Part shown: piece after piece, positions 10,053 to 61,232 of the stretch
Layout of the letters: every line of letters begins with the position of its first letter
Position numbering within the stretch: position 1 is the stretch's first letter
NCBI RefSeq assembly: GCF_044324875.1
Contig: NZ_CP172185.1
Length of the DNA: 64,000 bases
Strand: one strand, 5' to 3'
DNA from: Escherichia coli
Lineage (GTDB): Bacteria > Pseudomonadota > Gammaproteobacteria > Enterobacterales > Enterobacteriaceae
Position numbers and translations under genes: made by a program
The notes under the pieces: model-generated
Told to the model about the DNA's origin: nothing
Seen by the model: the letters and a program-made list of their open reading frames with translations, nothing else
The model's database searches: none

Positions 10053-10763
10053 TTAATCTCCTGTACGGATAAGTTCTTGTCGGAGTGAGTAAGTTCCGGT
10101 AGGTAAATTACGTTCTACAATCACGCGCGGGCCAAGTTGCGTGTTCGGGGAAATAATTCGCCCGGGCAAAATAATAACCTGTACGCCAAGGCGTGAACGC
10201 TGCCCGATATAACAACCTAATTTATCGCATCCGGTAGCGATAATTCCATCTGGCGTTCGAACAGACACGGGCTGTTCATCCAGACGATGATTACTGGTAC
10301 GTACTTGTGCGCCCAGATATGCCTGGTTTGCAACTACCGAGTCGGCAACAAAGCATTGCGGACCAATCGTTGCTTCCGTTTCAATAACCGCATTTTTAAT
10401 TTCGGTGGCAAAACCAATTTTTACGCCATTGCTGATTATTGTGCCAGGACGAATAAACGCATAATTACCTATCAGGCAGTTTGCGCCAATCACTACCGGC
10501 CCCTGAATAACGGCACCGTGGCAAATACGGGTATTCGCGCCGATAACAACTTCACCTGCACTTTCATCAATAATTACCTGGTCTGCAATCTGAGTATTTT
10601 TCTCTTTAACATTAAGCTCCAGATAGTTTTTCAGTTTCTGTGACAGAAGGTTGGGAATAAGCGGTTGACGTTTCCACCAGTGCGGAATAGCGGGTGGGTT
10701 TGTCGCGCTGAGGTTCGCGTCCAGTAAAAAAGGCAATAAGTCCATAAATAATCCAGATGGCAT
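10053..10763 (-). CDS. yaiX: Hexapeptide-repeat (left-handed beta-helix) acyltransferase, YaiX-like; true start probably downstream of 10763
   Basis: Repeated [LIV]-G-x-x-x-x-I hexapeptide pattern (…VIGANTRICHGAVIQGPVVIGANCLIGNYAFIRPGTIISNGVKIG…). The ORF as drawn overlaps the upstream gene by about 150 nt. Confidence 0.65.
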   Translation of the reverse strand: MPSGLFMDLLPFLLDANLSATNPPAIPHWWKRQPLIPNLLSQKLKNYLELNVKEKNTQIADQVIIDESAGEVVIGANTRICHGAVIQGPVVIGANCLIGNYAFIRPGTIISNGVKIGFATEIKNAVIETEATIGPQCFVADSVVANQAYLGAQVRTSNHRLDEQPVSVRTPDGIIATGCDKLGCYIGQRSRLGVQVIILPGRIISPNTQLGPRVIVERNLPTGTYSLRQELIRTGD

Positions 10764-52327: not shown

Positions 52328-54954
<2,627 letters not shown>

Positions 54955-54991
54955 GATAAATCCTCTGTGAAAGTGGGTTGAGGTGATGAGG

Positions 54992-55648
54992 TCAGCTGAA
55001 ATGATGTCCGGCTGCGGTGAAGGTGTATCCGTTGATGAGAAGCGCCTCATCCACGGCGTCGTCTGAGGTCAGCCAGTCGTACTCGTTTTCCAGTTGACTG
55101 TATAACCAGAAGGCCAGGTCCCGCAGGGCGTCACAGACAACGGTTTCTGCATCGGCTGTCATTGCCTGTCCGGTCGGACTGTTCCGGGTAACAGTGATAT
55201 CCATGCTGTACGGATGGCAGTAGTGTCCCCGGTGACTGATTTCAGCCTGTAACTGCCGGAAGTTACGTTTCTGCACCGCCTGCAGGGCATCCGCGATACG
55301 ATGAAGTTCATGGTCCTGCGGGGCATATTCCCGGATTTTCCTGGCTGTTGCCGGCTGCCAGTGCCAGCGTCCTTCAAAACAGGCTCCGTCCCCCTGGCTG
55401 CAGAATCCGCTGAACCAGATACACGGCTCTTCCATAAACCTGCCGCTGCTGAGCCGGATAACTCGCTGGCGGAGGACAATCCCGACAATCTCACAGACCG
55501 CCCTGAAGTCTTCATACACGTTTTCATACCAGCTGCTGTCAGCATGATGCTGACGGTACCAGTCACGGGCTTTTTCCCGTGCTGTGGCGGAAAGTTCATC
55601 CGGCGTATACACGGTGGTGGTGATAATTCTGCTCATCCGCATCTCCAC
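54992..55648 (-). CDS. Hypothetical protein (218 aa) between the DUF987 gene and cbeA
   Basis: Cys/His/Trp-rich (…CIWFSGFCSQGDGACFEGRWHW…, …HRGHYCHPY…); not part of the module as I recall it from E. coli K-12. Confidence 0.5.
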   Translation of the reverse strand: MEMRMSRIITTTVYTPDELSATAREKARDWYRQHHADSSWYENVYEDFRAVCEIVGIVLRQRVIRLSSGRFMEEPCIWFSGFCSQGDGACFEGRWHWQPATARKIREYAPQDHELHRIADALQAVQKRNFRQLQAEISHRGHYCHPYSMDITVTRNSPTGQAMTADAETVVCDALRDLAFWLYSQLENEYDWLTSDDAVDEALLINGYTFTAAGHHFS

Positions 55649-55652
55649 TGAC

Positions 55653-55889
55653 TCAGTTCAGGGTGACGCTCATCAGCCGGACATACGGGCCAAAACTGTC
55701 CTTGCGGCGTTCGGCAAACACGGCCAGTACGCCGGGGATATCCTGTACTTCACGACCGGTATACGCCTCAGTGCCGCCGTGCCAGCGGTACTTACCGGTG
55801 CAGAACGGAAAAAGACGGGATGACGGATACTGACGGTGAACGCGCATGGCTTCACCACGGGTGACGATTTTCATAGTGTGATACCTCAT
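55653..55889 (-). CDS. DUF987 (YeeT-like) protein
   Basis: …MKIVTRGEAMRVHRQYPSSRLFPFCTGKYRWHGGTEAYTGREVQDIPGVLAVFAERRKD…. Confidence 0.7.
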   Translation of the reverse strand: MRYHTMKIVTRGEAMRVHRQYPSSRLFPFCTGKYRWHGGTEAYTGREVQDIPGVLAVFAERRKDSFGPYVRLMSVTLN

Positions 55890-55958
55890 GAGGATGAGAG
55901 AGAGTAAAGGGCCGGATGACGATGACAGATATGTGGTTTGCTGTGATTTGTCGCAGAA

Positions 55959-56477
55959 TTAAAGCAGGCCGTGTTCGGCAAAGGAGAACACCCGGCTGCC
56001 ACCGACTATCAGATGGTCCGGTACCCGGATATCCACCAGGGCCAGTGCCTGTACCAGCCGTTCCGTGATAAGCCGGTCAGCCTTACCGGGTGTGACTTCA
56101 CCGGACGGATGATTGTGCGCCAGCACCACGGCAGCGGCATTGTGGTACAGGGCGCGTTTAACCACCTCCCGGGGATGGACTTCCGTGCGGTTGATGGTGC
56201 CGGTGAAGAGGGTTTCACCGGCAATCAGCTGATTCTGGTTGTTCAGGTACAGCACCCGGAACTCTTCCCGCTCCAGTCCTGCCATGTGCAGAATCAGCCA
56301 TTCCCGTGCCGCATGCGTGGAGGTGAAGGCCACACCGGGTTCATGAAGATGGCGGTCCAGGGTTTTCAGGGCACGCTGAATGAGACTGCGCTCGCCGGGC
56401 GTCATCGCGCCGGGCAGAAAGGAAATCTGTTGCATAACCTCACCCCTCAGTCGATGATGCGAATAATGGCGCTGCAT
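55959..56477 (-). CDS. RadC-like JAB-domain protein (YeeS/YfjY-like)
   Basis: …VVLAHNHPSGEVTPGKADRLITERL… (JAMM metalloprotease-like HxHPSG motif). Confidence 0.8.
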   Translation of the reverse strand: MQRHYSHHRLRGEVMQQISFLPGAMTPGERSLIQRALKTLDRHLHEPGVAFTSTHAAREWLILHMAGLEREEFRVLYLNNQNQLIAGETLFTGTINRTEVHPREVVKRALYHNAAAVVLAHNHPSGEVTPGKADRLITERLVQALALVDIRVPDHLIVGGSRVFSFAEHGLL

Positions 56478-56920
56478 TCCGGATGCTGCAGGGCGTAATC
56501 CCGCAGCCGGTAATAATGGACCGTCATGGCATAATGCTCCGTACTGCAGGCGTGATGACTGTAGGCCATCAGACAGGCGGCAATGCCGGCGGCTTCCGGG
56601 CTCATTTCCGCGCGGTTACCGTTCATGGCGTTAAACAGCACCCATTTTTCGTCATCATCGTCACCCGGTTCGGGAGCCATAAATGCGCCGCCGTTGTTCA
56701 GGGTGTACATATTCCAGATACCCCCACTGTAGTCTTCACACAGACGGTCCATCCAGCCGAAGACACGGGGCTCCAGGGTCACCCACTGCGGAATGAGGCC
56801 AAAATGCTGCGGCCAGAAGCTGATGCGCTGTTCGTCAGGCACCGTGGTGGCAACCAGCTGAGGTGTATTATTCCCGGATGCAGTGGCTGCGGAAACAGAG
56901 TCATGCGAAACCGTTTTCAT
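56447..56920 (-). CDS. Antirestriction protein (ArdB/KlcA-like)
   Basis: 157 aa; acidic, …NMYTLNNGGAFMAPEPGDDDDEKWVLFNAMNGNRAEMSPEAAGIAACLMAYSH…. Confidence 0.75.
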   Translation of the reverse strand: MKTVSHDSVSAATASGNNTPQLVATTVPDEQRISFWPQHFGLIPQWVTLEPRVFGWMDRLCEDYSGGIWNMYTLNNGGAFMAPEPGDDDDEKWVLFNAMNGNRAEMSPEAAGIAACLMAYSHHACSTEHYAMTVHYYRLRDYALQHPECSAIIRIID

Positions 56921-56933
56921 AAGTGAAATCCTT

Positions 56934-56973
56934 AAGTGAATAAGTGAATAAGTGAATAAGTGAATAAGTGAAT
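56934..56973. repeat. Octanucleotide tandem repeat (AAGTGAAT)x5 in the 5' leader of the antirestriction gene
   Basis: Five perfect 8-bp units at 56934-56973; the start codon is at 56918-56920 with AGGA between repeat and ATG on the minus strand. Confidence 0.9.
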
Positions 56974-57013
56974 AGATAAGAGAGAAAAGGCTGCGCCTCT
57001 CAGGCAGAAGGCA

Positions 57014-57832
57014 TCAGCGCATACTCACCAGCAGCGTTTCCGCCATCACCCACAATGCACGATTGAGCTTAATGTCGGTGTCGATACTGTGAATGGCCCG
57101 GGTGTGGATACGTTTTCCTTTTGCGCTGCGTCCCTGAAGACCGCCTTTGAGCATATTCTCCTGGATGGTCTGATAAGCACTCCACAGGTCCCTGCCGTAA
57201 TCCTCCCGGCGTCGTGGTGTCAGAATGTCGGCGGTGGTGACGGGCTGATGTTCGTCACCATAACGGTAAGTCAGTGCCGCCTGTGCCAGCGCCTGACGAG
57301 CCGGTGGTGGTAAAATCAGCGACTGCATGGCATCACGCTTCTCCTCAATCCGGTCAAACACGCCCACAACCTCGTAAGCCCCTTCGATGACCCTGTCCAC
57401 CACGTTTCCCCGGTGCGGGACACGCACCTCTCCGAGAGACTGACCACAGACACATCCGTTCTGACACACGAACCGGAAGTAACCCGGCAGCATCTGGTAG
57501 CTGGAGGTACCGTCATGGGAGTTCAGCAGGATGATTTCAGGAACGTGCTGTCCGTTTATCTCCCCGTCACGGCGCAGACGCAGCATGTGCTTTGTGTATC
57601 CCCGGCGTCCCGGGTCACGCACGCGGGTCTGGCAGGCAAAGAACGGCTGAAAGCCTTCCCGCTGCAGGCTTTCCAGTACGGTGATGGTGGGGATGTATGT
57701 ATAGTTCCGGCTCCGGGAGGTGTGCTTATCTTCCCCGAAAATCCCGGGCACATGGTGCATCAGCTCTTCACGGGTCAGCGGACGGTCACGGCGTATCTGG
57801 TTCGCATAACCGAAACGACTGGCTAATCGCAT
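57014..57832 (-). CDS. DUF932 (YfjQ-like) protein
   Basis: 272 aa; conserved island-module neighbour of the GTPase gene. Confidence 0.65.
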   Translation of the reverse strand: MRLASRFGYANQIRRDRPLTREELMHHVPGIFGEDKHTSRSRNYTYIPTITVLESLQREGFQPFFACQTRVRDPGRRGYTKHMLRLRRDGEINGQHVPEIILLNSHDGTSSYQMLPGYFRFVCQNGCVCGQSLGEVRVPHRGNVVDRVIEGAYEVVGVFDRIEEKRDAMQSLILPPPARQALAQAALTYRYGDEHQPVTTADILTPRRREDYGRDLWSAYQTIQENMLKGGLQGRSAKGKRIHTRAIHSIDTDIKLNRALWVMAETLLVSMR

Positions 57833-58016
57833 ACTTTGCTCCTTATCGGTGGTTAATATTTACTGATGTAATAAATGAAAAAGCCGCGTCTCCCGGGGAA
57901 GACGCGCCTGATGGATGAAATGAATGAGGGTTTACCGAAGTCCTTCAGCATTGAGGTGAAGCAGCCGGAAAGGTGTTACCTGGTCATCGACGGGTCAGGT
58001 CAAAAAGCGGGGACAT

Positions 58017-58901
58017 TCAGAACAGGCGATCCCACAGTGTGACCAGCAGGCGGATAATGCGATCACGGGCTTTGCGCAGAAGCTGCAGCATCCATGCCGG
58101 AAAGCTGAACCGGGCAATGGCCGCGTCAAAGCTCTGGCCGATGGCGTCACCAAAAGCCTGCTGTGCGTGTTGCTGATCCTGCGCAGTGCGCTTTTCATTC
58201 CGGATATGCGAATAAACCGCGCTGGTTGCCTGTGGTGGCAGGGCGTGGATCATCAGAGACACAAATGCCGGAAGATTCCAGCCGGCAGGAGCGGCTATGG
58301 GGAGTACCGGAAATGATGAAGGGAACAGGGTTGCCACCCGGGCTGTCACCGTCGCCAGTGAGAGTTCCTGCTGACGGGATGGCGTGCTGCTCTGGTTGTT
58401 CCATTCTTCAGCCGGGTGGATGCGATCGGCATGGCTGAGAACAAACAGAAAACGCGAGGGATCGGCACCTTCATTCAGTAAAAACTGATGCATGGCAATA
58501 TCGGCAGCATACGCACGTTCATCAGCCCGCAGGATCCAGATAATCAGATCCAGTTCGGGTAGTAACTGACGGTAAAGTGCCCGGTATTCCTGATCATGCT
58601 GTGGTGTTTCGCCAGTGCCGGGCAGATCGACGAGCGTCATTCTGCGTTCACCGGGCTGAAAGGTAAGACGATGAGCCTGACGGGTGCAGCCGTTCAGCGG
58701 ATGCGTGGCGCAGACACGGGACTGAAAAATGGCATTGCACAGGCTGCTTTTTCCGGCACCGGATTTACCCATAATGCCAATAACGGGTTCGTAATGAATG
58801 ACGCTGTGAAGATGTTCAAGGATTTTCTGGCGTATTTCTTCAGGAAGAAAGGTCAGATGTGACTTTACGTGTGCGGAAAGGGAAGAATGGCTGAATGACA
58901 T
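58017..58901 (-). CDS. YeeP/YfjP-family GTPase
   Basis: G1 motif GIMGKSGAGKSSLCNAIF, G3 …DLPGTGE…; typical first conserved gene of CP4-like modules. Confidence 0.85.
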   Translation of the reverse strand: MSFSHSSLSAHVKSHLTFLPEEIRQKILEHLHSVIHYEPVIGIMGKSGAGKSSLCNAIFQSRVCATHPLNGCTRQAHRLTFQPGERRMTLVDLPGTGETPQHDQEYRALYRQLLPELDLIIWILRADERAYAADIAMHQFLLNEGADPSRFLFVLSHADRIHPAEEWNNQSSTPSRQQELSLATVTARVATLFPSSFPVLPIAAPAGWNLPAFVSLMIHALPPQATSAVYSHIRNEKRTAQDQQHAQQAFGDAIGQSFDAAIARFSFPAWMLQLLRKARDRIIRLLVTLWDRLF

Positions 58902-59006
58902 ACCGGTATCCTGTTGATTTCACTGAACCGGATCACATTAATCCGGTCTCTCAGTCAGGTAATATGGACGTGAAAAAATCTGGAGTGATAAAGTGTGGGA
59001 GGTGAG

Positions 59007-59960
59007 ATGACGGCACAACAAAGTGATGCGCTGCGTGAGATTGCTAATAAAGCCAGAGTTACCACCATTCTTCAGAGTAAGGTCTGGAAAGATACCCAGC
59101 GAATACTGAAGCGCAGCGGACTCGTGTACGGAAAACGGTCAGAGCCGTTTGATCCGGAGAAACATTTTGACCTTCAAACGGTGCGTTATCTGTATCAGCT
59201 TAACATGATGGCACTTGAGTTAAGGGAAGACACACAGATTGAGGTTGAGGTGGGCCACTGGCATCGCATGACAGGTCAATGTTTATCAATTCGTGTCCCG
59301 CCTTTTATGCTGATCCCGCGTCATATCCGGAGAAAAGTGGATGGATTCAGACAATCAGAAGGTAAAACAACAAAAAAACCGACTCAACCGTTCACGGGCA
59401 GTTTGTATAAGATTTTGCTCAGGGATATTGACCCGGATAAGCTGGATGCATGGTTTGCTGAACCGCCGATGACATGGCAGGAAGTGCTGGAGGGGAGGCG
59501 TGTCACTGATTTTAATCCATGGGCTCTGTCTTCGCCTATTTGCCGTTCAGCATCCCCGACGTTTGAACTTTTTTACCAGGAATATAAGCGACTGGGATTA
59601 AAATCTCTTTTTGTATCAGGGGTAATGTTTGAACAATTTTTAACAAAACTGAATGTCAGAAAACATGAGTACGGGGTTGAATCGCAGTTACTGGAATCAC
59701 TGGGAAATGTGATGTTTTTCATGTTGCTTTATGACATTGAAAATATGGCAAGGTTTACAGAAGCACTTATGAACATTAATGAGCAAAGTGGACATTCGAA
59801 GGGAAAAGGGAAAACGCGAACAGAGATAATGCTGGAATATATCAATTCATATATCCTCGATGTTCATGAAAACTTCCTTTGTTCTTCAAAAGAAAGGTAC
59901 GAACAGCATAAACGCAAAAACAGCAGTAAAAAGAAAAACGGTTCTGGTGGAACGCATTAA
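59007..59960 (+). CDS. Hypothetical protein (about 317 aa), low GC
   Basis: Start at MTAQQSDALREIANKARV…; Lys-rich C-terminal tail; no recognizable motif. Confidence 0.5.
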   Translation: MTAQQSDALREIANKARVTTILQSKVWKDTQRILKRSGLVYGKRSEPFDPEKHFDLQTVRYLYQLNMMALELREDTQIEVEVGHWHRMTGQCLSIRVPPFMLIPRHIRRKVDGFRQSEGKTTKKPTQPFTGSLYKILLRDIDPDKLDAWFAEPPMTWQEVLEGRRVTDFNPWALSSPICRSASPTFELFYQEYKRLGLKSLFVSGVMFEQFLTKLNVRKHEYGVESQLLESLGNVMFFMLLYDIENMARFTEALMNINEQSGHSKGKGKTRTEIMLEYINSYILDVHENFLCSSKERYEQHKRKNSSKKKNGSGGTH

Positions 59961-60904
59961 CGGGAATAATCCCCGGTTGTTTTCTGCATAAACAGACGAT
60001 CAGCTGATAAGATGAGTTTATCCAGTATTTCAGCCTGAGTAAGATTATTCTTTTTTGCCATTTTCCGGAGTATATTCCTGGCTTCCGGAGAAATCAGGGC
60101 ACTTATCTGTACCCGGCGATCCACTTTTTCATGCCGGAACATTTTCTGATAAGAATTTTTCATGCGTCTGATTAAATCATTCTGACGCTGAACAAGATCT
60201 TTCAGATGCTGGTGTTCAATAGTGGAAGGAAGTATATTAAAAAATACACAACGGACAGAAACTATTACGGCGAGACGGGCTTCTCTGTCGTTACAAGTTT
60301 TAAAATTCGGAAGAACAGGACAGTAATGAATGTTTCCAGAATTATGCATGCACAAATCAGAATCATGCCTGGACAAATATTCCCATGCCCATTTAATATG
60401 AATCCTTTGATGATCAAGCCATTTCATGGGATTCACTTTTTCAGCATACGACCATAAAAAACGAAGAGTAGACAAGAATTCCGAGACGGTTAGTGCGTCG
60501 ACAATTTTTCTGTACTCCTGGAGCCATTTATTTATCATAATAATCCGGGATTTATCATCACCAGGTAAAGAGTAATAACCAAACAACCTGGTATACAGGT
60601 TACTCTCGTTTTGAGACTGCTCCCAGGACAATGGAACTCGTGTGAAGTTGTCAGGAACATGAAATATAAACCACCATACCCAGAACGTGGCTACACGGTT
60701 GGTTTTTATCCAGTCCGGAACTGCTTCACTTTCTGAATTATCGGTCTCAACAACTCCTGATGTATTATCCGGATAATGCTCAGCCCCAAAAAAACCATCA
60801 ACAGGGTTATCTGGTGAATACACAGACATTAACTCCATGGGTATAAATGTATAGCCATCTAAAGAATCAAATCCTCTCTTACTTTCAACTCCTCTGTAAG
60901 TCAA
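59957..60904 (-). CDS. Hypothetical protein (about 293-315 aa), low GC, with C-terminal RHH/HTH-like segment
   Basis: C-terminus …ISPEARNILRKMAKKNNLTQAEILDKLILSADRLF…; Trp-rich central region; 3' end overlaps the convergent neighbour by 4 nt. Confidence 0.5.
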   Translation of the reverse strand: MTYRGVESKRGFDSLDGYTFIPMELMSVYSPDNPVDGFFGAEHYPDNTSGVVETDNSESEAVPDWIKTNRVATFWVWWFIFHVPDNFTRVPLSWEQSQNESNLYTRLFGYYSLPGDDKSRIIMINKWLQEYRKIVDALTVSEFLSTLRFLWSYAEKVNPMKWLDHQRIHIKWAWEYLSRHDSDLCMHNSGNIHYCPVLPNFKTCNDREARLAVIVSVRCVFFNILPSTIEHQHLKDLVQRQNDLIRRMKNSYQKMFRHEKVDRRVQISALISPEARNILRKMAKKNNLTQAEILDKLILSADRLFMQKTTGDYSR

Positions 60905-61232
60905 TTCTATCTGAATTCTCTTTTAACGACACATCAGAAAAAATGCAACACCCACATTGGTGATTTTCATTTGCTTACAAAACCATACTTTAAATTACAA
61001 ACAAATAATACACACACCTCGGATAAAATCACGTCGAAATTTAATTATTTTAAATAAATAATGCATTAAAAATATCCATAAATTATCCAGCTGAATATTT
61101 TTTATATGAAAAACATGCTGTCGTTCGTTGTCTTGCGTATTCCGCTCTATTCGATCACGGATTGGCATCGAAGTCCGATCAGCGATTCGCATCCATTCGA
61201 TCAACCGGGAACTTAACTTTTTCTACCGCTTT

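Follow-up and report, generated by a model that had tools for sequence, protein, structure and literature searches.

What does a pair of AT-rich genes, set tail to tail beside a GTPase gene, contribute to the chromosomal island that carries it? We addressed this question in a window of 64,000 nucleotides of Escherichia coli DNA (RefSeq assembly GCF_044324875.1, contig NZ_CP172185.1; the window is this whole stretch, and positions count from its first letter), in which two open reading frames (ORFs), ORF1 and ORF2, stand next to the YfjP-type GTPase gene of a CP4-57-type island (coordinates in Table 1). An earlier, sequence-only reading of the same DNA had drawn attention to them. We propose, with a probability of roughly 40%, that ORF1 and ORF2 are an island-specific, immunity-like regulatory cassette of this CP4-57/YfjP-type integrative island.

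Two genes of uncharacterised families

ORF1 and ORF2 are real, intact genes of uncharacterised families. Intact homologues occur in hundreds of genomes, conserved motifs survive down to 22% identity, the ratio of nonsynonymous to synonymous substitution rates (dN/dS) stays below 1 and the structural model of ORF1 is confident, all of which argues that they are not chance ORFs. Measured against E. coli A24 and strain 144, dN/dS amounts to 0.66-0.67 for ORF1 and 0.44-0.77 for ORF2, versus 0.17-0.20 for the GTPase gene, and the two genes evolve much faster than their neighbours. The sequence-only reading had described two low-GC ORFs that converge with a 4-nt overlap, and it had allowed that they might be degraded fragments. 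The description holds, with GC contents of 0.34-0.41 across ∼59400-61200 against 0.55-0.60 in the CP4-like module and backbone; decay is very improbable, the ORFs being intact, with full-length homologues at 22-30% identity and the dN/dS values given above. The ATG at 59007 is the likely start of ORF1, as it is preceded by GGGAGGTGAG and the start site is common to all relatives; an alternative GTG lies upstream at 58995. For ORF2 we adopted the ATG at 60829, because its relatives and a 100%-identical database protein (P0069) begin there.

ORF1 is a basic protein (isoelectric point 9.4), mostly alpha-helical, with an orphan fold. Its family conserves the motifs AW..TQ..LKRSG, FM(L/I)(I/V)P..IRRK..F.Q, GSLY, PTF.L...E..R and LLE.LG..LFF..LY, and the only invariant polar residues are K110, Y134 and E192; as far as an alignment can tell, the conserved positions (W27, K110, Y134, E192, the IRRK motif and GSLY) suggest no known catalytic site. 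Distant relatives of 22-29% identity, obtained by scanning the full set of 1.84 billion representatives with a profile, were added to the modelling alignment, and the AlphaFold2 model built from it is confident, with a predicted local distance difference test score (pLDDT) of 85 and a predicted template modelling score (pTM) of 0.83. A Foldseek search of this model against AFDB50 matched only uncharacterised proteins of its own family, from E. coli, Salmonella, Citrobacter and Serratia, and no structural relative outside that family was found. A profile search among PDB sequences returned nothing, and neither did PADLOC, NCBIfam, PHROGs and Pfam, whether queried with the single sequence or with a 27-member alignment. 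Paralogy between ORF1 and ORF2 was ruled out, the two proteins being unrelated to each other.

In ORF2, a Trp-rich helical N-terminal domain leads through a long helix into a C-terminus that is likely a ribbon-helix-helix (RHH) domain, and the protein is thus predicted, again as likely, to be an RHH-type DNA-binding protein of the dimeric CopG/CopB/Arc-class fold. A tail of this kind had been noticed in the sequence-only reading, and it now has the support of a weak profile signal and of a fold search. The profile signal is a match to a CopB/RepA-type regulator model (NF010256/PRK13702; E 9e-4, 19.2 bits for a cut-off of 87), which covers residues 266-300 of the 315-aa ORF, equivalent to residues 241-275 of the 290-aa protein. 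Close relatives of ORF2 have precomputed matches to PF10723 (RepB-RCR_reg), and a rescan of 12 aligned members with this type of model gave E <= 1e-3 in 1 and E <= 0.1 in 3 of them. The fold search, carried out with a monomer model, matched the C-terminus to RHH proteins, the beta-strand/helix/helix module of ∼45-50 residues being present; the proteins matched are mostly antitoxins (ParD/PrpA, MazE4, TacA, FitA, DinJ), with TraM among the top ones. Beyond the weak C-terminal signal, ORF2 matched nothing in Pfam, NCBIfam, PHROGs or PADLOC, and its N-terminal domain of ∼200 residues has no match among PDB sequence profiles or by fold search. This N-terminal domain is also the part that diverges fastest among alleles that share the RHH, with 35-65% identity versus 90-100% for the RHH itself.

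The profile and fold searches that the earlier reading had recommended thus place neither protein in a described family, in agreement with its own failure to find one. PADLOC-DB v2.0.0, which does not cover post-2023 systems, matched neither ORF1 nor ORF2 (E limit 1), nor the 407-aa homologue of ORF1 discussed below (E limit 0.1), and literature searches by protein accession, by PF10723 and by island gene sets returned nothing on the pair. No finding in this analysis shows a role of ORF1 or ORF2 in phage defence. YfjH of E. coli K-12, of similar size and encoded divergently from alpA, was considered as a relative and discarded, since it is unrelated to either family.

A cassette exchanged at one position of the island

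ORF1 and ORF2 are one unit, inherited and exchanged together. The same pair, 86% identical in DNA sequence, adjoins a YfjP-family GTPase gene in E. coli A24, and all six inspected E. coli loci with an ORF1 of such length (A24 and five others) have the convergent pair with its 4-nt overlap; this overlap of stop codons is annotated in loci L001-L004, L015 and L016 and in the distant locus L005. Among distant relatives of ORF1 (22-30% identity), a convergent partner of 256-320 residues lies directly downstream in 6/6 fetched contigs, the two genes overlapping by up to 26 nt or standing up to 121 nt apart. These partners align with ORF2 over the full length and have in common an invariant set of Trp residues and the RHH. 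Named members of the clusters in this distant set come from Citrobacter, Hafnia, Serratia and Lelliottia, a profile scan of the genome collection with a subset of the alignment gave one Hafnia alvei locus, and relatives were found in Enterobacterales only. The sequence-only reading had taken the convergent genes for likely separate units, an idea that fits poorly with a pair kept in every distant relative and every E. coli locus inspected and exchanged as one contiguous cassette.

The pair is confined to one position in one island family, beside the GTPase gene. Where contigs are long enough (L005-L008), the GTPase gene is divergent and lies ∼100 nt upstream of ORF1. On the other side, an alpA-type gene stands divergently upstream of ORF2 in every distant locus that extends far enough (L005/L006, L008, L009 and L010), and a Gp2/YfjJ-type gene (rolling-circle Rep-like), likewise divergent from ORF2, comes after it. 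The layout of the island is the same in L001-L005, L008 and L015-L018, with DUF932, antirestriction, RadC/JAB and CbtA-CbeA genes past the GTPase gene and a Gp2/YfjJ-type gene on the opposite side. Our window agrees with this CP4-57/YfjP-type arrangement on the GTPase side, as judged from genes annotated by size and similarity, the Gp2 side falling past the insertion sequence (IS) and the window end. None of 50,697 phage records contains the pair, and only 2 of 72,556 plasmid records hold a relative of it. Together with the fixed place beside the GTPase gene in a single island family, these counts make it doubtful that the pair is ordinary hopping cargo.

Between the slot gene or genes and the Gp2-family gene, E. 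coli islands have an AT-rich interval of 1.2-1.7 kb (L004 7922-9600; likewise in L001, L015, L016 and L017). It contains no annotated gene save one short hypothetical coding sequence in most loci, and in L004, the sole locus scanned for ORFs, none exceeds 92 aa; in relatives outside E. coli, the alpA-type gene fills the interval.

That the place beside the GTPase gene is a variable slot, as the earlier reading had held, is borne out by two comparisons. Strain LH50-c is 98.9% identical to the window over 57000-58976, up to a point 30 nt before the ORF1 start and just past the GGTAATAT element, beyond which it has a 407-aa gene and no ORF2. In the K-12 island CP4-57 (L013 8352-14356), abpB-abpA, yfjM and rnlAB lie between yfjJ and yfjP, with no trace of the ORF1 or ORF2 family. 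Islands of the CP4-57 family thus fill the GTPase-proximal slot with unrelated gene sets, K-12 providing the contrast. The 407-aa protein is a remote homologue of ORF1 (hhalign probability 94%, E 1e-7; hidden Markov model E 2e-8), itself without a Pfam or PADLOC match, and profile comparison therefore indicates that ORF1 is part of a wider family that occupies the same slot in other islands too. Counted as related DNA among 5426 complete E. coli genomes, the 407-aa homologue is present at 1067 places in 975 genomes, ORF1 at 818 places in 741 genomes, ORF2 of the window's allele group at 202 places in 195 genomes and the GTPase gene at 10,083 places in 4409 genomes, with a median of 2 and a maximum of 9 GTPase places per genome.

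Sequence comparison locates what is exchanged. In pair-bearing islands, protein identity to the window is 87-88% for the GTPase, 88-96% for DUF932 and 91-95% for JAB, while it falls to 50% for ORF1 and to 26% for ORF2. Compared block by block, the C-terminal third of ORF1 and the whole of ORF2 vary together, and residues 1-200 of ORF1 stay 48-90% identical. A sliding comparison of L015 with L004 gives the clearest case: the GTPase gene is 99-100% and the Gp2-family gene 97-100% identical, and the ∼2 kb between them, made up of the 3′ third of ORF1, ORF2 and ∼0.5 kb upstream, is 30-48% identical at the nucleotide level; the ORF2 protein of L015 is 26% identical to that of the window. ORF2 and its adjoining noncoding DNA have thus been replaced together, by alleles that cannot be aligned, within conserved flanks (L015/L016 versus L004, flanks 97-100%, cassette 30-48%). 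Between allele groups, conservation of the cassette is highest, at 95-98%, around the junction of the two genes, which encodes the ORF1 tail and the ORF2 RHH (59900-60150; L004 7020-7168); of the two flanks of this stretch, one is 82-85% and the other 56-57% identical. The AT-rich stretch of the window coincides with the variable part of the cassette, setting in just 5′ of the variable third of ORF1, between ∼59400 and 59600.

A regulatory reading and its rivals

In the reading that we favour, ORF2 would dimerise through its RHH and bind operators in its own AT-rich upstream region, which co-varies with it, so that its own expression and the neighbouring genes on the alpA/rep side would be under its control. 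A signal would be received by the variable N-terminal domain of ORF2, for which ORF1 would be the most economical partner, through the C-terminal third that is swapped together with ORF2; an external signal acting on the same domain would be the alternative. ORF1 is read outward from the conserved, compact region that it has in common with the GTPase gene. The transcripts of the two genes probably overlap, since no terminator is evident between them, and such stop-to-stop transcripts could interfere mutually. Many diverged alleles in near-identical backbones would then stop cross-regulation among related islands that reside in one E. coli genome. In favour of this regulatory cassette are the convergent partner in 6/6 distant loci, the alpA-type gene divergent from ORF2, the cassette swap, the high dN/dS, the restricted context and the presence of several islands per genome. 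For ORF2 as a repressor of excision or replication genes, the evidence is positional, namely the divergent alpA-type gene in L005/L006, L008, L009 and L010.

The intergenic region between the GTPase gene and ORF1 contains an inverted repeat and a -10-like hexamer, and at the same positions L005 and L008 (5900-6000 in each) carry the GGTAATAT element and a repeat that differs in sequence and can form a hairpin. The retention of these positions in relatives of 25-30% identity, while the stem changes, suggests a conserved hairpin or operator of the island backbone. We rejected the inverted repeat as an operator specific to ORF2, since it is also found in L017 (7886-7985), a locus without ORF2, and since the backbone of L018, likewise devoid of ORF2, is 98.9% identical up to 58976. 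Upstream of ORF2, the sole promoter-like site found is a weak one at 61110-61082. A terminator at the junction was also rejected: small hairpins with U-runs fold no better than shuffled sequences (z -0.8 to -1.7) and are absent in L015. The codons of the lysine-rich ORF1 tail read as a U-run on the opposite strand. Rfam searches found nothing in 54000-64000, one sub-threshold match in L004 and no family in the AT-rich interval of that locus.

Several observations weigh against a regulatory role. No operator was found: five upstream regions whose RHH domains are 90-100% identical have no repeated motif in common, searches of ORF2 upstream regions for repeats and shared k-mers yielded AT-rich low-complexity words only, and repeats in distant intergenic regions are no better than expected of AT-rich DNA. 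ORF2 of the window is under every curated RHH threshold (19 bits versus a cut-off of 87, no Pfam match). E. coli islands lack alpA between ORF2 and the Gp2 gene, and islands with the 407-aa homologue keep the same Gp2-family gene without ORF2, so ORF2 is no indispensable repressor of that gene. The joint swapping of ORF1 and ORF2 could merely reflect their adjacency. Finally, high dN/dS and allele swapping suit a conflict role, in defence or anti-defence, equally well.

That last point introduces the main rival, which we consider unlikely, though less so than the others: a new conflict system, acting in anti-phage defence or abortive infection, or in anti-defence or exclusion. ORF1, possibly with the GTPase, would be its effector or sensor and ORF2 a DNA-binding sensor or autoregulator, and the turnover of alleles would reflect an arms race. 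The K-12 slot with abpAB and rnlAB, the raised dN/dS, divergent alleles exchanged within near-identical backbones, the AT-richness of the cassette, the orphan folds in both proteins and a backbone with antirestriction, RadC/JAB and DUF932 genes, typical of establishment and anti-defence regions, are what one would expect of such a system. However, PADLOC models match neither protein nor the 407-aa homologue, no catalytic-looking motif is conserved, the invariant polar residues of ORF1 being three only, and the convergent layout is atypical of two-gene defence operons; moreover, the pair is seen at a single position in one island family and in no phage, whereas most defence systems hop between contexts. 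A fuller version of this idea, to which we give slightly less credence, joins the GTPase gene, the hypervariable ORF1-family gene expressed from the conserved promoter region common to both and, in islands that have it, the RHH protein ORF2 into a hitherto unrecognised conflict system of Enterobacterales islands, respecified by whole-cassette swaps, that would act against phages or rival elements or serve as anti-defence in island establishment.

An accessory module for DNA processing is a distinctly less probable reading, in which ORF2 would act at an oriT, a replication origin or a centromere-like site, much as TraY/TraM, CopG or ParG do, with ORF1 as a DNA-bound partner working with the Gp2-like Rep. 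TraM among the top RHH fold matches, the sequence signal to PF10723, a replication-regulator family, the Gp2/REP_ORF2-G2P-type gene that is always downstream, the long ORF-free AT-rich stretch between ORF2 and that gene in E. coli and the basic character of ORF1 (pI 9.4) all point this way, but ORF1 has no relaxase, Rep or ParA-type motif or fold match, searches upstream of ORF2 gave neither iterons nor repeats, and islands with the 407-aa variant manage without ORF2. The same variant also speaks against an addiction (toxin-antitoxin) pair in which ORF1 would be the toxin and ORF2 its RHH antitoxin, of HicB-like layout: the 407-aa homologue of ORF1 exists without any ORF2 in 975 genomes, a state that a toxin lacking its antitoxin would make lethal. 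Although the RHH fold matches are mostly antitoxins, the gene pairing is strict and the island already has toxin-antitoxin modules (CbtA/CbeA), the genes converge with overlapping stops, here and in relatives, instead of forming a codirectional bicistron, and ORF1 matches no toxin family in Pfam, in PADLOC or by fold, which leaves this option improbable. The least probable explanation by far is that both genes are decaying, nonfunctional remnants kept by linkage alone. The relatively high dN/dS, fragmentary copies in databases and the adjoining IS element might be read in that sense; the intact full-length pairs across Enterobacterales at 22-30% identity with motifs kept, a dN/dS below 1, a confident fold prediction for ORF1 and related DNA in 741/5426 complete E. 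coli genomes speak against it.

These alternatives matter because CP4-57-type islands are present in most E. coli genomes (GTPase DNA in 4409/5426). Our analysis defines two protein families without a known fold that behave as a single exchangeable unit and evolve at an unusually high rate, and it predicts a testable activity for ORF2, DNA binding through the RHH. What is new here is a putative RHH regulator with a novel putative sensor domain and an obligatory novel partner. Island-specific regulation, if true, would account for the coexistence of several near-identical islands in a single cell; a conflict system, if that is what the pair proves to be, would add a new, position-locked and cassette-exchanged type.

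Surroundings and known counterparts

Table 1. Positions of the genes, domains and sites discussed (window coordinates unless a locus is named).
Feature	Position	Strand	Details
ORF1	59007-59960	+	317 aa; start ATG 59007
ORF1 variable C-terminal third	59604-59957	+	∼aa 200-317; exchanged with ORF2 in other islands
Overlapping stops, TTAA	59957-59960	both	convergent ORF1/ORF2 ends
ORF2	59957-60829	-	290 aa from ATG 60829; frame open to TTG 60904 (315-aa ORF)
ORF2 RHH domain (predicted)	59972-60118	-	aa 238-286, RRVQISALIS-PEARNILRKMAKKNN-LTQAEILDKLILSADRLF; weak profile signal and fold search
ORF2 N-terminal domain	60134-60727	-	aa 35-232; unmatched by sequence and by fold
AT-rich region upstream of ORF2, presumed promoter/operator	60830-61133	-	resumes at 63779-64000 past the IS; co-varies with ORF2 allele
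YfjP-type GTPase gene	58017-58901	-	294 aa; constant divergent neighbour of ORF1-family genes
GTPase-ORF1 divergent control region	58902-59006		105 bp; 94% conserved among E. coli islands
Inverted repeat ACCGGAT-N7-ATCCGGT	58927-58947		7-bp arms, 7-nt spacer; within GTPase-ORF1 intergenic region
-10-like TAATAT	58960-58965		within GTPase-ORF1 intergenic region
IS21-family insertion (IstA + IstB)	61134-63772	-	target duplications 61128-61133 and 63773-63778
407-aa ORF1 homologue	L017 7986-9209; L018 20584-21807		same slot, no ORF2; extra N-terminal Cx4C...Cx2H (zinc-finger-like) motif

The pair does lie between the GTPase gene and an IS21-family insertion, as the first reading of this DNA had it, and the element scores as IstA/IstB. 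It stands outside the cassette and parts ORF2 from whatever stood further upstream. The 6-bp duplication TTGTCT that flanks it marks it as a simple insertion, which lies upstream of the ORF2 ATG at a distance of 304 bp, and the last 222 bases of the window (63779-64000) resume the preinsertion sequence. A copy at 32606-35244, identical over its 2,639 bp and likewise scoring as IS21 IstA/IstB, has a 6-bp duplication of its own (TTTTGC), a sign that the two copies transposed recently and independently. Another IS21-family element, different from these (52394-54195; IstA 340 aa, IstB 260 aa), borders the CP4-like module at its CbtA/CbeA end and probably truncates the distal genes of the module, because relatives have DUF5983, DUF957 and DUF4942. 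Elsewhere in the window, a gene for a 500-aa phosphoethanolamine-transferase-like protein adjoins a P4-type integrase gene (43668-45170 and 46828-48093) in a segment that is 98.9% identical to E. coli LH50-c; the best match of this protein is CptA, well under all curated cut-offs, and MCR models reach E 1e-6 to 1e-9 only. An ORF of 1274 aa (27908-31732) ends in a C-terminal autotransporter beta-barrel domain.

Islands of the same general class as that of the window are the tmRNA/tRNA-integrated islands of Pseudomonas described in a 2025 study, with IntY, AlpA, RadC and inovirus Gp2-like proteins as core genes and defence genes as cargo (PMC12595487); AlpA, RadC and the Gp2-like protein are what the two have in common. 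The passages searched mention neither a GTPase (0 occurrences) nor a pair such as ORF1/ORF2. Closer at hand, AbpAB (YfjLK) and RnlAB of K-12 CP4-57 occupy the same slot, between the yfjJ-type and the yfjP-type GTPase gene, but have no sequence relation to ORF1 and ORF2 and are codirectional operons annotated with roles against phages and as toxin-antitoxin.

As for ORF2, it resembles CopG, IncFII CopB (RepA2) and the PF10723 RepB-RCR_reg regulators in its predicted C-terminal RHH of ∼50 residues and in the proximity of a Rep-like (Gp2-family) gene. Regulators of this type belong to plasmid replicons and are stand-alone proteins of 45-90 aa, whereas ORF2 has 290 aa and a large N-terminal domain, lies in a chromosomal island and converges with ORF1; no IncFII repA adjoins it, and its relatives occur in 2 plasmid records only, which sets it apart from IncFII CopB/RepA2. 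HicB-type antitoxins have a partner-binding domain followed by a C-terminal RHH, and ORF2 follows the same domain order, a larger N-terminal domain preceding the RHH; however, this N-terminal domain has no fold or sequence similarity to theirs, the partner, with 317 aa, is no small HicA, and the two genes converge instead of forming an operon. Phage immunity regions and the Stl repressors of SaPIs differ between otherwise similar elements. ORF2 departs from them in that its predicted DNA-binding domain is a C-terminal RHH and not an N-terminal helix-turn-helix, and in that a convergent gene, ORF1, is part of the unit; the likeness, which we offer as an analogy, is that of a DNA-binding regulator, a role that is putative for ORF2, and its adjoining DNA that differ radically between near-identical flanks.

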